32,000 nt of DNA from Candidatus Micrarchaeota archaeon (GCA_043816005.1 JBDRIM010000073.1:1-32000); one strand, 5' to 3'; shown: positions 7,194 through 15,279, counted from the first letter of the stretch. Made by a program: numbers and translations. The notes: generated from the letters alone by a model not told the origin.

Positions 7194-7220
7194 TCTATTG
7201 GAACATCATTCTGCTACTAT

Positions 7221-7559
7221 GGGCTCGTAGTCGATTCCGACTTTTTGGAAAAAAGTCGGCCAAAAACTTTTTGGTTAAACGACAATGGTAAGACGCCTGC
7301 TTGACATTTTCACCGTTTAGAAAACAACAATGTCGTGATACGACATTGTGCCCATAAAAACGAAAAATCGTTTTTATAGAGGGGTGAAACCAAAACGGTC
7401 TGTAAATGGCCGATCAAAAACATTTGGAAAGAGAGTTTTGATGCACATAATTGTTCGATCTCTCGAACAATTTGCGTCTTGAACGATTCATCGTTCAAGT
7501 ACGACTTTTTCCAAAAGTTGCAATGCAGGAGATACGCGGTCCGATTCCGCGCGGGCCCA
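7221..7559 (+). tRNA. tRNA-Val(GAC) with two insertions (about 7235-7283 in the D loop; 7307-7523 at position 37/38)
   Basis: Joining the exons by hand gives a 73-nt cloverleaf. Acceptor GGGCTCG/CGGGCCC, D stem GTCG/AGAC with G18 G19, anticodon stem CCTGC/GCAGG, loop TTGACAT. T stem CGCGG/CCGCG, discriminator A73. A T-run follows. The T loop TCCGATT is atypical at position 55. Confidence 0.65.
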
Positions 7560-7563
7560 AATC

Positions 7564-10931: not shown

Positions 10932-11621
10932 TTAAATTCTATTTAATGCATCTTTCATCTTTTCTATTGTCATATTCGTTGCAATCATGGGGATGCGTTC
11001 ACGTTCTGATATTTTTATTGCAAGTTTGTCTACTTTACCAGAATCTAAATTGTGCAAAACAACTGCCGATGGTTTTGAAGAGCTTACTCTTATGACTACA
11101 AATGGGCTCCTACCAGTACTAACACCTGTGAAAATGAACACTCTCTCATTCACATTTCCATACAAATTCTGAAAATATGAAAATGGCATATCCAAGATGA
11201 CCTTTATACTATCAATCAACGTATACCCATAAATTTTCTTAGTTTCAACAAGATCTCCGTTAGTCAAAACCCTACCATCAATTAATTTTACAAAATCCTT
11301 AAGTAAAATCGATCTTGCAAACTCGTGGACTTCGAAATATTCACTCACTGGTTTTTCTTTTTCTCTAAACTTCTGAGCAATTCCACCGCCTTTTATTCTA
11401 TCTATATCAAAAAGTGCATTGACGAAACGTTTTACTACTCCTGTTCCTGGTGATTTTCTTCTGTTTCCTTCGTAATCACTGATAGTTGATACTGTAATAT
11501 CAAGATGTTTTGCAAGTTCAACCTGTGAGATGTTGAATATTTCACGCCATTTCCTCATGGTTGCTCCTGGGTCTTCTGATAGTGAAATTTCGCCTGCTAT
11601 TTCCATTTTTATTTTTTCCAA
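10932..11621 (-). CDS. archaeal HTH (XRE-type) transcriptional regulator, COG1395-like
   Basis: HTH segment WREIFNISQVELAKHLDITVSTISDYEGNRR followed by a ~150-aa C-terminal domain. TTG start at 11621 lies 5 nt after GAGGAG. An alternative ATG is at 11606. Confidence 0.8.
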   Translation of the reverse strand: MEKIKMEIAGEISLSEDPGATMRKWREIFNISQVELAKHLDITVSTISDYEGNRRKSPGTGVVKRFVNALFDIDRIKGGGIAQKFREKEKPVSEYFEVHEFARSILLKDFVKLIDGRVLTNGDLVETKKIYGYTLIDSIKVILDMPFSYFQNLYGNVNERVFIFTGVSTGRSPFVVIRVSSSKPSAVVLHNLDSGKVDKLAIKISERERIPMIATNMTIEKMKDALNRI

Positions 11622-11749
11622 TTAATCTCCTCAAAATGGAAAGTAGTGAACGCAGTTCACGTTAATTTCCATTTTTATTTTTTCCAATTAATCTCCTCAA
11701 AATGGAAAGATGCGAACTTGTTCGCAAAGATTTCCATTTTTATTTTTTC
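11599..11749. repeat. tandem 66/65-bp repeat overlapping the regulator start
   Basis: Direct reading. Two identical 45-nt units at 11599-11643 and 11665-11709: atttccatttttattttttccaattaatctcctcaaaatggaaag. A 20-nt partial third copy lies at 11730-11749. Spacers contain GTGAAC-GCA-GTTCAC (11646-11660) and TGCGAAC-TT-GTTCGCA (11711-11726). Confidence 0.9.
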
Positions 11750-11895
11750 TATTTACATCACCATAAAACTAAAAAAAATCTAATATCTAATGCAACTATC
11801 AGCTAAACTATTTATATTCATTTCGACTATTGTCCATTATGACTTCGGCAATTTTGTTCGTGCTAATTTTTAAATTTTGATTGTAAAATAGGTTC

Positions 11896-12375
11896 ATGCC
11901 ATTAAATCTATTAGGAGATTTTTTTTCAATCCTTAAACCATCGTTATTTACCTCATCGTCAGCCATTCTAATTATATGTTTTATAATTTGGGAACTTCCA
12001 CGTACACTCAAAATCATGGATGAGGAATATACAAAAGACTTATACCCAGAAAATAGTAGGATACCCGATTTTTTCTTTTTATTTTGGGGATTAATTGGTA
12101 TTCTATATCTGTTCCCTCTCAATAACACGGATAATGTTCTTGCGTTTCTCAAAACACCTGGGATAACTTCATTTTACATTGTAATCATGATCACAATACC
12201 TTTCATTGTCTTAATGGGGTATTTCAAACGGTTCTTTGAAAGAATGCACAAACACGATTCACTTACTATTTTCACAGTCCAGTCATTTATGGATCTTATG
12301 CACACGTTGTTTTTCATTTCAGTTTCAATATTGATGGTACCAATACTTGGCTATCTAATTGGTCCATTGAAATAA
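11896..12375 (+). CDS. hypothetical integral membrane protein (3-4 TM)
   Basis: Hydrophobic helices FFFLFWGLIGILYLFPL, ITSFYIVIMITIPFIVLMGYF and LFFISVSILMVPILGYLIGPL. AGGT lies 3 nt before the ATG. Preferred over the overlapping antisense ORF 11808-12152. Confidence 0.5.
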   Translation: MPLNLLGDFFSILKPSLFTSSSAILIICFIIWELPRTLKIMDEEYTKDLYPENSRIPDFFFLFWGLIGILYLFPLNNTDNVLAFLKTPGITSFYIVIMITIPFIVLMGYFKRFFERMHKHDSLTIFTVQSFMDLMHTLFFISVSILMVPILGYLIGPLK

Positions 12376-13161: not shown

Positions 13162-13545
13162 CTAAACTTTTCTTAATCCTTTTATTCCATCAAATTTTCC
13201 TGTTGATCCTGTTGATCTTGTAAATAAAAATGCATTGTTTGCCATACATATAGCTGCTGTCAAAATACTGTCCGTCATTCTAAATCCGTCGCTGCGATCC
13301 TTCATATCATTCAAAAGTTTTGATGCAATTTGTGCAGCTTTTTTGTCAAATGGTAAAACTGTAACATTAGCCGAAAAAGATGAAACCACTTCTGGTTTAT
13401 TAATTACTTCGAGAAGATGCATCATTGTTAAACTTGTTATACAAATTTCTTCATGATCCGCATAATACCTCATCTTATCAATAATTGCCGGTTCGCCTCG
13501 GAGAAAGTCTAATGCAGCTTCAAAGTCTAAGCATATTTTTTCCAT
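13162..13545 (-). CDS. vapC: PIN-domain ribonuclease toxin (VapC-like)
   Basis: 127 aa with an N-terminal ICLD acidic residue and TDSILTAAICMANNAFLFT, a pattern typical of PIN. Sits 12 nt downstream of a small antitoxin-like gene. The fourth acidic position is not obvious. Confidence 0.7.
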   Translation of the reverse strand: MEKICLDFEAALDFLRGEPAIIDKMRYYADHEEICITSLTMMHLLEVINKPEVVSSFSANVTVLPFDKKAAQIASKLLNDMKDRSDGFRMTDSILTAAICMANNAFLFTRSTGSTGKFDGIKGLRKV

Positions 13546-13557
13546 TTAAATCCCTCA

Positions 13558-13773
13558 TCATCTGTTATATGCTTGATCTCGTTTTATCCTATCTACCTCA
13601 CGGTGATTAATGTCCATTTCATCAATACTTCCAGCAAGACTAATAATATTACTACCTTCTCTCTTTTCTTTTAACAAAAACCGTAAAATCTCACTAAAGC
13701 TCATTGCCTTAGATTTCTTTAACTGGTAGAGTTCCGCATATACATCATCCATTATCGTTATTACTTTCACCAT
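13558..13773 (-). CDS. vapB: VapB-type antitoxin (archaeal small antitoxin family)
   Basis: ITIMDDVYAELYQLKKSKAMSFSEILRFLL resembles the archaeal VapB pattern (I.v.devy..L...K....SFSevI..Ll). ATG at 13773 lies 5 nt after AGGTGA. The track start GTG 13782 sits inside that SD. Confidence 0.65.
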   Translation of the reverse strand: MVKVITIMDDVYAELYQLKKSKAMSFSEILRFLLKEKREGSNIISLAGSIDEMDINHREVDRIKRDQAYNR

Positions 13774-14141: not shown

Positions 14142-15221
14142 ATGGAAGATTTGGTAAGATCGGTTGTTGGAGAAAATACGCCGCAAGCTGACAAACAGTC
14201 CTCTGATGCATTGAGTTCAGAGTGCATTAAAATCGTTACTGTCGGTGTGGGTGGTGCTGGTAATAACACCATTAACAGACTTATAAAGTCCGGAGTTAAA
14301 GGTACCGAGTTGGTTGCAGTTAACACTGACAAACAACACCTTAACATTGTTCATGAAAGAGCAAAGAAGGTCTTAATAGGTAAATCAGTTACCAAAGGTT
14401 TGGGTGCTGGTGGTTATCCTGACATAGGTGCAAAGTCGTGTGAAGTTGACAGGCCACTTGTTGAAAGAGAACTTGAAGGCGCTCATCTTGTATTTGTTTG
14501 TGCAGGTATGGGTGGTGGTACTGGCGGTGGTGCAGCTCCAATTATTGCACAAATTGCAAAAGAGCAAGGAGCAATCGTAGTTGCCATGGTTACCTATCCA
14601 TTTGCTTTGGAAAGAGCAAGAAAAAAAAGAGCAGAAGATGGTATTAAACTCTTGAAAAAGAGCTGTGACTCAGTTATTATTCTTGATAATAATAGATTGG
14701 TTCAGTTAGTTCCAAATTTGCCAATGGCAGAAGCATTTGCTGTTGCTGATGAGATTCTTTCAAGGGCAATTAGCGGTCTTGTATGGACCATCACACAACC
14801 ATCTTTGATTAATATCGACTTCGCAGATGTCCGTGCAATCATGGAAGGCGGAGGAGTTGGATTCATTGCAGTTGGTGAAGGTAAAGGAAATGACAAAGTC
14901 AAAGCAGCCGCAGAGGGTGTTATAAAGAACCGACTGTTGGATGTTGACTTCGAAGGTGCGAAAGGTGCACTTATTCACATTACTGGTGGTAGTGACCTCA
15001 CATTGGGAGATGCTATCAAAGCTGGTGAATGGGTAACCGAAAAGATGGATGCCGAAGCAAATGTCAAATGGGGCGCTAGAATTATGCAGAATTACGAAGG
15101 CAAATTAGAAATTGTTGCCATCGTAACTGGTGTAAAAGGTGCGTCAGTTGCAGGCTCATCGATGATTGAAGAAGAATCTGTTATGCCAACATACTCTTCT
15201 GACCTTGAAGTTTTAGGTTAA
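14142..15221 (+). CDS. ftsZ: cell division GTPase FtsZ
   Basis: Tubulin signature [12 protein letters not shown], plus VGVGGAGNN and NTD motifs. AGGTGA lies 5 nt upstream of the ATG. Confidence 0.95.
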
Positions 15222-15279
15222 AAACTTGAGGACCATAGAACGATTCGTCGTTCTATTGGACCTTGAAGTTTTAGGTTAA
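15201..15279. repeat. perfect 21-nt direct repeat of the ftsZ 3-prime end flanking a 37-nt hairpin insert
   Basis: gaccttgaagttttaggttaa occurs at 15201-15221 (last 6 codons plus the ftsZ stop) and again at 15259-15279. The insert contains ATAGAACGA-TTCG-TCGTTCTAT (15235-15256). Confidence 0.9.

Follow-up and report, generated by a model that had tools for sequence, protein, structure and literature searches.

A copy-number-variable leader element built from copies of the start region of an XRE-type regulator gene in Candidatus Micrarchaeota

Organisation of the regulator gene and its leader

The DNA analysed here, a stretch of 32,000 nucleotides (nt) from a Candidatus Micrarchaeota archaeon (GCA_043816005.1, JBDRIM010000073.1:1-32000) called the window below, shows on its minus strand a gene encoding an XRE-type helix-turn-helix (HTH) regulator and, upstream of this gene, a tandem repeat that contains copies of the gene's own Shine-Dalgarno (SD) motif and start region. 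The regulator gene (10932..11621) has a TTG start and encodes 229 amino acids (aa). Its product matches PF01381 (HTH_3) with 30.2 bits, against a gathering cut-off of 23, which places it in the XRE family, and its close homologues number in the hundreds, carry the labels Micrarchaeota, Ca. ainarchaeum or Bilamarchaeum and conserve the N-terminus MEKIKMEIAG. Since the homologues keep the MEKIK N-terminus, the TTG at 11621 is supported as the start codon. Database entries for the regulator show 224-, 229- and 241-271-aa versions, of which the 224-aa and the 241-271-aa versions are mis-called starts caused by the repeats.

The repeat (11599-11749) has a period of 66 nt, 2.3 copies and a score of 225 in Tandem Repeats Finder (TRF). 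In a repeat search of the window the copies begin at 11599, 11665 and 11730, with spacings of 66 and 65 nt: the first two form a perfect repeat of 45 nt and the third matches over 20 nt. Each unit is composed of an anti-start arm, TTTCCATTTT, the motif GAGGAG, a TTG start and the first eight codons, and two different GAAC/GTTC hairpins separate the units. Five exact arms of 10 nt alternate along this region, two of them TTTCCATTTT and three AAAATGGAAA, and all six complementary combinations were recovered. In the naming used here, A is the upstream copy of nt +12 to +23 of the coding sequence (CDS), B stands for the complementary arm and A' for the segment within the real CDS.

Read on the sense strand (minus strand of the window), the order begins with an SD-like GGTGAT (11757-11762) and a decayed start copy, ATAGAAAAAATAAAAATGGAAAT (11730..11752), which matches the ancestral initiation region of element-free relatives. 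This outermost copy contains arm A0, AAAATGGAAA (11731-11740), and the ATG (11737-11735) of a 20-codon open reading frame (ORF; 11675-11737). The palindromic inner hairpin 1, TGCGAAC-aa-GTTCGCA (TGCGAACaaGTTCGCA, 11711..11726), is followed by anti-start arm B1, TTTCCATTTT (11699..11708), whose potential partners are A0 upstream or A1 downstream, by a decoy SD, GAGGAG (11693..11698), by the linker attaa and by TTGGAAAAAATAAAAATGGAAAT, so that a decoy TTG (11687-11685) opens a copy of codons 1-8 (11665-11687) with arm A1, AAAATGGAAA (11666-11675), inside it. Downstream are inner hairpin 2, GTGAAC-tgc-GTTCAC (GTGAACtgcGTTCAC, 11646..11660), and anti-start arm B2, TTTCCATTTT (11633..11642), which may pair with A1 (open state) or with real codons 5-8. 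The SD of the real gene, GAGGAG (11627..11632), comes next, again followed by attaa and TTGGAAAAAATAAAAATGGAAAT, here running on into AGCAGGC and the rest of the real gene, and arm A', AAAATGGAAA (11600-11609), covers codons K5-M6-E7. The decoy TTG also opens an 18-codon upstream ORF (uORF), MEKIKMEINVNCVHYFPF (11631..11687), whose TGA (11633-11631) overlaps the real SD, 12 nt ahead of the real TTG. A preliminary description, made from the sequence alone, had reported the tandem copies of the SD and start region, the five alternating complementary arms, the two GAAC/GTTC palindromic spacers and both short ORFs; the TRF result, the repeat coordinates and the ORF list bear out all of these, and the arms and spacers are exact. 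Elsewhere in the 32-kb window, the only comparable repeat is a duplicated segment of 21 nt at the 3' end of ftsZ.

The window was compared with 160 orthologous loci plus nearest relatives, which are given L numbers where they have to be told apart. Upstream of the repeat, a block resembling a transcription factor B recognition element (BRE) and TATA box, CGAAATGAATATAAATA (11825-11809, minus strand), shows the consensus CGAAAT..ATATAAA, is conserved across orthologous loci and is identical in L161. The median spacing between this block and the first start is 36 nt where the element is present, versus 32.5 nt to the gene where it is absent. From the conserved block, the transcription start site (TSS) is predicted at about 11788, upstream of every repeat copy, and all copies would be transcribed; a TSS downstream of the upstream copies, which the preliminary description had named as fatal to its uORFs, is unlikely on this prediction. 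Around or overlapping the BRE/TATA block lies a direct repeat, GCCGAAGT ... GTCGAAAT (11820-11827 and 11842-11849, minus strand), which is conserved in the promoters of most orthologues, whether or not they carry the leader element.

The AlphaFold model of the regulator (pLDDT 83) contains the XRE HTH domain and a C-terminal domain that is weakly DRTGG-like by Foldseek (E about 0.006-0.014; TM of 0.66 on target for 2ioj). This C-terminal half (10932-11350, about 150 aa) weakly resembles AF1212 (2ioj), a CBS-pyrophosphatase regulatory region and the HPr kinase N-domain, and Pfam and PDB sequence searches with it gave no match.

Distribution, covariation and predicted folding of the element

The layout in which a copy of the gene's own SD and start with A is followed by an inner hairpin, B, an SD and the real start with A' was found in about 27 of about 155 loci. 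About one in six orthologous loci carries the element, between the BRE/TATA block and the gene, and the comparison of copy number across related genomes, suggested in the preliminary description, gives 0, 1 or 2 modules. Five loci show two modules: the window, L161, L081, L085 and L041. A few loci (L006, L027) retain only B. L161 comes from an independent assembly (Logan SRR22388050) and its protein is 96% identical to that of the window; it shows two modules with an identical GTGAACtgcGTTCAC hairpin, and its SDs and first hairpin have diverged from those of the window. The tandem is therefore real and predates the split between the window and L161.

The sister loci L118 and L119 differ in one module: L119, which has none, equals L118, which has one, minus exactly one unit, and the sequence upstream of the decoy in L118 is the ancestral leader. 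From this comparison it follows that the decoy is the ancestral initiation region; judged from the same pair, the inserted cassette is the hairpin, B, a new SD and a 23-nt duplicate of the start. By sequence comparison, then, this is a real, heritable leader element that varies in copy number. About 90 nt upstream of the regulator start, L134, L047 and L146 show a decoy copy split by the perfect hairpins ATGAGGACttcGTCCTCA and TTCAAGTTCttcGAACTTGAA, and here the B arm is missing.

Covariation was examined in MAFFT alignments made from sequence only. The B:A' helix of 10 bp has five pairs changed on both sides, a value that 0 of 500 shuffles reach (31 start regions), and 90.6% of its cells are paired, versus 39-60% after sliding of the partner. 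Where the coding sequence has changed at Met6 (ATG to GCG, GCT, ATC or TTA), B mirrors the change and, where A differs from A', B agrees with A' in six of the seven informative cases. The A:B helix together with the inner hairpin shows 10 pairs with double-sided changes, and six of the seven pairs of the inner stem are compensatory (25 elements).

In the predicted folds, every A-hairpin-B segment forms a long capped hairpin of -12 to -28 kcal/mol. The minimum free energy structure of the window leader has A0:B1 and A1:B2 paired and the real SD and start open. The predicted states of the window are -29.9 kcal/mol (ON), -29.3 (mixed) and -27.4 (OFF): the shifted register, B1:A1 with B2:A', costs 2.5 kcal/mol over ON and the mixed state 0.6, and over 23 loci the median difference between registers is +0.9 kcal/mol. 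When the decoy start or A1 is blocked as a ribosome would block it, B2 is predicted to pair with real codons 5-8, with GAGGAG and TTG in a loop of 23 nt. The A1-hairpin-B2 segment has a z-score of -5 versus shuffles. As in a translational attenuator, the predicted hairpins are mutually exclusive and one of them would occlude the main initiation region.

Most of the 26 decoys show an ATG, GTG or TTG start and an SD-like motif unlike the real SD in sequence. The uORF frame is open through B in 24 of 26 elements, and the other frames in 4 and 16. The stops of the uORFs cluster between -14 and +10 of the next start, with several TAATG or TGATG overlaps. The decoy of the window, with GAGGAG, TTG and the ORF of 18 codons, has the short upstream ORF expected of an attenuator. 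The recurrence in about 27 other loci, the covariation, the kept SDs and starts and the near-isoenergetic registers support the earlier suggestion of decoy initiation sites and alternative hairpins in a translational leader. The codon at the real start is ATA in L043 and ATC in L041, and the upstream decoy keeps ATG in both; in L043 an in-frame GTG lies directly after the TAG stop of the decoy ORF. This suggests that translation of the gene in these two loci depends on the decoy ORF or on Met6.

A possible translational switch and its rivals

The reading preferred here, with a probability of about one half, is that the element acts as a bistable, translational switch in the mRNA leader, derived from a copied start region of the gene itself. 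The repeat of the window would be a cis-acting element, conserved but optional, of the regulator mRNA leader, here in its two-module version. Each module would be a cassette containing the inner GAAC/GTTC hairpin, then anti-start arm B, then a new SD and a second copy of the start with the first eight codons, inserted behind the ancestral initiation region, which would thereby become a decoy. With B paired to the A of the decoy, a long hairpin capped by the inner hairpin would leave the real SD and start free; with B paired to A' (codons 5-8), the real SD and start codon would lie in the loop of a hairpin and initiation would be hindered. The two states would be almost isoenergetic, and the decoy would be a translatable uORF running through B and stopping at the real SD or start. 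Ribosome traffic on the decoy may decide the partner of B, or termination-reinitiation may deliver ribosomes to the real start, and by either route the output of the regulator would be linked to leader translation. Changes in copy number between 0, 1 and 2 would come from unequal recombination between the direct repeats or from slippage. That the decoys are translated we infer, as we do the sign and the adaptiveness of the regulatory effect.

Several results weigh against such a switch. About 82% of the orthologues lack the element, and in these the complementarity of the upstream region to the start region is no higher than in controls (mean best score of 6.68 versus 6.80); with no compensating complementarity, the element is therefore dispensable. 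Its distribution on the protein tree is patchy and sister lineages differ. The window and L161 differ at three sites of the 23-nt copy, yet the copies are identical within each genome, and L013 carries GTC in both of its copies. This concerted evolution outside the paired region means that homogenisation at the DNA level operates, which could mimic covariation or keep the inverted arms complementary. The whole leader has a folding z-score of only -1.6, and the non-Watson-Crick cells of the helices are 14 G·U and 17 A·C; without an excess of G·U there is no RNA- or strand-specific signature, and this test therefore does not separate a constraint on RNA from one on DNA. In the uORF peptides, conservation beyond the copied MEKIKMEI was not found, and frame and stop position vary.

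Many of these results are also what would be expected if the repeat were a non-adaptive product of DNA-level processes, either palindrome-driven duplication or tiny palindromic insertions at gene ends, with no regulatory role. The survivors would be those insertions that regenerate an intact gene, and the arms would be kept alike by gene conversion, not by selection. This is the strongest rival, a tentative but real possibility. It draws on the patchy presence and absence, with sisters one exact unit apart, on the concerted evolution of the direct copies outside paired positions, on the missing G·U bias and on the dispensability just described; moreover, B usually matches the copy of its own cassette, as expected under unit copying, the ftsZ 3' end is a second direct-inverted-direct case in the window, around ATAGAACGAttcgTCGTTCTAT, and perfect hairpins of 8-10 bp are inserted elsewhere (five in 7237-7499, others in L041, L124 and L134). 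However, the inner hairpins are homologous across 70% to 96% protein identity, with stems kept or compensated and loops and linkers variable; start codons are retained in the decoys, whose SDs have diverged on their own, and the uORF frames remain open. Small compact genomes should quickly lose an insert of 66-130 nt flanked by direct repeats. Relatives have the regulator element in common but lack the ftsZ duplication. However it arose, the structure must fold within the 5' leader, a position from which it could affect initiation. The suggestion in the preliminary description that the repeat is the footprint of the palindrome-plus-duplication process seen at ftsZ stands either as a live rival or as an account of how the element arose that complements the switch: ftsZ shows the same direct-inverted-direct pattern, and its duplication is not found in the two relatives examined. 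An origin by mutation or as a selfish element is plausible and could coexist with an effect at the RNA level.

At ftsZ, the last 21 nt including the stop codon (GACCTTGAAGTTTTAGGTTAA) are duplicated 58 nt downstream (15201-15279, plus strand), and between the two copies lie an imperfect inverted copy, AAACTTGAGGACC, and a GAAC/GTTC palindrome, ATAGAACGAttcgTCGTTCTAT. As RNA, this region would be one long capped hairpin followed by T8, and looks terminator-like; the duplication is absent from both relatives examined, L282 and L284. A non-coding stretch of about 360 nt (7201-7562, plus strand) shows tRNA-like ends, GGGCTCG...CGGGCCCA, a T-arm-like CGCGG-TCCGATT-CCGCG and five perfect 10-bp hairpins in series (7237-7259, 7327-7349, 7354-7377, 7449-7472 and 7478-7499), one of which, CTTGAACGATtcATCGTTCAAG, resembles the ftsZ palindrome. 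Neither Rfam nor ARAGORN with default settings gives a match in this stretch, and relaxed ARAGORN gives a tRNA-Lys(UUU) with a 259-nt intron. Multi-hairpin inserts are also present in L041, L124 and L134.

Autoregulation through DNA operators, with the palindromes or the AAAATGGAAA/TTTCCATTTT arms bound by the dimeric HTH regulator, was also raised in the preliminary description. The product of the gene is an XRE-type HTH protein, the palindromes are near-perfect at the DNA level without G·U bias, and TTGAAC/GTTCAA is common to many hairpins. Against this, GAAC/GTTC palindromes were sought in the element-free promoters (82% of orthologues) and not found; the stems covary (GTGAAC, GCGAAC, CCGGCC, TTGGGC and others), with no single recognition sequence or fixed palindrome; the arms vary along with the coding sequence and their spacing of 23 nt is atypical; and the sites lie about 60-150 nt downstream of the predicted promoter, off the BRE, TATA and TSS. 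The proposal is improbable for these reasons, and the direct repeat GCCGAAGT ... GTCGAAAT at the promoter is a better operator candidate than the hairpins. A palindrome match at CDS +469, frequent among orthologues, is a by-product of coding: in GC-richer orthologues (e.g. L008:3469, L020:3469 and L048:3469) the codons for NVNERVF form the palindrome TGAACGAGCGCGTGTTCA, and the GAAC/GTTC core that it shares with the leader hairpins is probably coincidental.

Transcription attenuation, in which A-hairpin-B and the T-run of B would be a leader terminator relieved by translation of the decoy, is less probable still. Oligo-T is an archaeal termination signal, B ends in T4-T6 in many loci, and the T-run sometimes exceeds the A-run of its partner (L013, L089, L081). 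However, archaeal termination does not require a hairpin, the run is of four T in the window and of three in GCG-type loci (L122, L118, L048, L054), it tracks the partner A-run, and a conserved run of at least five T after the structure was not found (T3-T6 across loci).

Programmed translational bypass, with take-off at the ...GAA AT codons before the hairpin and landing on the identical codons of the real copy, is very improbable. Known bypass elements, the gap of T4 gene 60 and the byps of Magnusiomyces mitochondria, likewise show matched sequences around a hairpin gap near the coding start and an SD-like motif in the gap; here, take-off and landing sites are identical, the hairpin lies right after take-off, an SD-like motif lies in the gap, and in L043 and L041 the real copy has no canonical start and the decoy has an ATG. 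Unlike in gene 60 and byps, an SD and a start belonging to the real copy itself are present downstream in almost all loci; no stop or rare codon follows take-off and the uORFs carry on across the gap; the distance between the SD-like motif and the landing codons is about 20 nt and not about 6 nt; and the gap varies from 64 to 137 nt. Finally, although short tandem repeats are prone to mis-assembly, the chance that the repeat number is an assembly artefact or a collapsed or expanded repeat, which the preliminary description had allowed for, is negligible: the independent L161 assembly shows the same two modules with diverged flanks, and the doubles of L081, L085 and L041 have modules unlike each other.

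Related modules, known systems and meaning

A covariance model of A-hairpin-B was searched against 0.9 Mb of related sequence and matches, with 45-68 bits, only regulator leaders, plus a single exception of 39 bits upstream of the vapC (PIN) gene of L124. A check for a dispersed repeat in the same sequence found the element only in these two types of leader, with arms that derive from the local gene. In L124, arm B, CTCTCCATTTT, has its complement in the vapC start itself, AAAATGGAGA, upstream of which lie a decoy SD and ATG. The L124 element (31-146) is of the regulator type, with A as AAATGGAAAT, an outer TTGAAC/GTTCAA stem and two extra nested hairpins, one of which, AGAACGATgcgTCGTTCT, is like the ftsZ palindrome of the window. 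Matches to the A...B arm pattern in IMG/VR (120+) were rejected as chance palindromes, with covariance model scores of at most 31 bits. Rfam 15 gives no gathering-level match in the window, and the best score in 11300-12000 is at most 21 bits (E of at least 0.8).

A second family of such modules, at vapC, was found by a generic scan for direct repeats flanking an inverted copy and by inspection of vapC starts. The vapB-vapC junction of L007, L015, L021 and L282 shows a module unrelated in sequence, with a decoy SD and start, GGGGTTTTGATGG, an anti-SD, CAAAACCCCC, and the real initiation region; its coordinates are 700-805 in L007 and 7765-7850 in L282, and in L021 it looks doubled. The decoy ORF of L007 and L282 stops at the vapC ATG or 1 nt before it. 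The vapC of L081 shows the same pair of anti-SD and real region, with the anti arm changed in step with the real site (TAAAACCC/GGGTTTTAA). The vapB-vapC junction of the window itself (13545-13558) contains no such insert. The design of a start-region mimic plus an anti-start arm is thus recurrent in the phylum.

Leaders of the ermC, cat and cmlA type carry out ribosome-dependent translational attenuation in bacteria. The leader described here resembles them in that a short SD-bearing leader ORF precedes mutually exclusive hairpins, one of which occludes the main start, with the ribosome position deciding between them. It differs in being archaeal and in having a leader ORF copied from the start of the gene that it precedes; codons 5-8 rather than the SD would be occluded, with SD and start in the loop; neither a stalling peptide nor stalling codons are conserved, the modules are tandemly repeatable and dispensable, and no inducer is known. 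Fold-back inhibition is found in read-through transcripts of the IS10 and IS50 transposases and in hok mRNA, with its fbi/tac and ucb/dcb elements. There too, the start region is bound by an upstream complementary segment that folds back on it, and a second complementary segment competes for the same arm in alternative registers; the present case differs in gene context, in that the competitor is a duplicate of the start region, and in that no antisense RNA partner is known. In mechanism, the proposed switch resembles bacterial translational attenuators and fold-back inhibition. Since it lacks a conserved stalling peptide and a match to a curated RNA family, it would be a variant of a known mechanism type and not a standard member.

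Small palindromic repeats such as repetitive extragenic palindromes (REP), bacterial interspersed mosaic elements (BIME), Rickettsia palindromic elements and miniature inverted-repeat transposable elements (MITEs) are likewise short hairpin inserts, patchy and tolerated at gene ends. Here, unlike in these elements, the arms are not fixed but copied from the local gene, no dispersed family was found in the 0.9 Mb of related sequence searched, and the flanking duplication is 21-45 nt, far above normal target-site duplications. In the Salmonella mgtA intergenic region, a small ORF brings about uORF-dependent unmasking of a sequestered ribosome-binding site (PMC8092293). As in this case and in termination-reinitiation coupling, a short upstream ORF that ends beside the main start would alter access to a structured start; the uORF there is unrelated to the main gene in sequence, and here it is a mimic of that gene and belongs to the repeat unit. 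Tandem cis-regulatory RNAs are represented by the triple c-di-GMP riboswitch (PMC4759541). Two homologous modules in series in one leader are the common feature, but here no evidence of a ligand-binding aptamer was found, and the modules would overlap in function, as each B arm is able to pair with the neighbouring unit.

The literature examined gave no relevant prior description for Micrarchaeota, DPANN or archaeal leaders, and an mRNA leader switch of this kind looks previously undescribed. To our knowledge, archaea have very few documented mRNA structures that regulate in cis and DPANN have none; DPANN lineages are, as far as we know, not yet genetically tractable. The locus is a compact, sequence-defined candidate for such a structure, with three covarying helices, decoys, natural alleles of 0, 1 and 2 copies and a second, independent example at a toxin gene. 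It also matters for annotation, as gene callers mis-start the regulator owing to the repeats. A broader idea, which we regard as doubtful, is that Micrarchaeota have a lineage-specific, portable, hairpin-centred copying process in which a gene's own start region is copied once direct and once inverted: this would yield bistable modules whose copy number of 0, 1 or 2 is reset by recombination, serving as heritable, rapidly reversible rheostats for low-dosage genes (XRE regulator, VapC toxin), and also terminator-like 3' hairpins, as at ftsZ. Beyond the regulator itself, the locus bears on the origin and persistence of repeats and palindromes in genomes of very small size.

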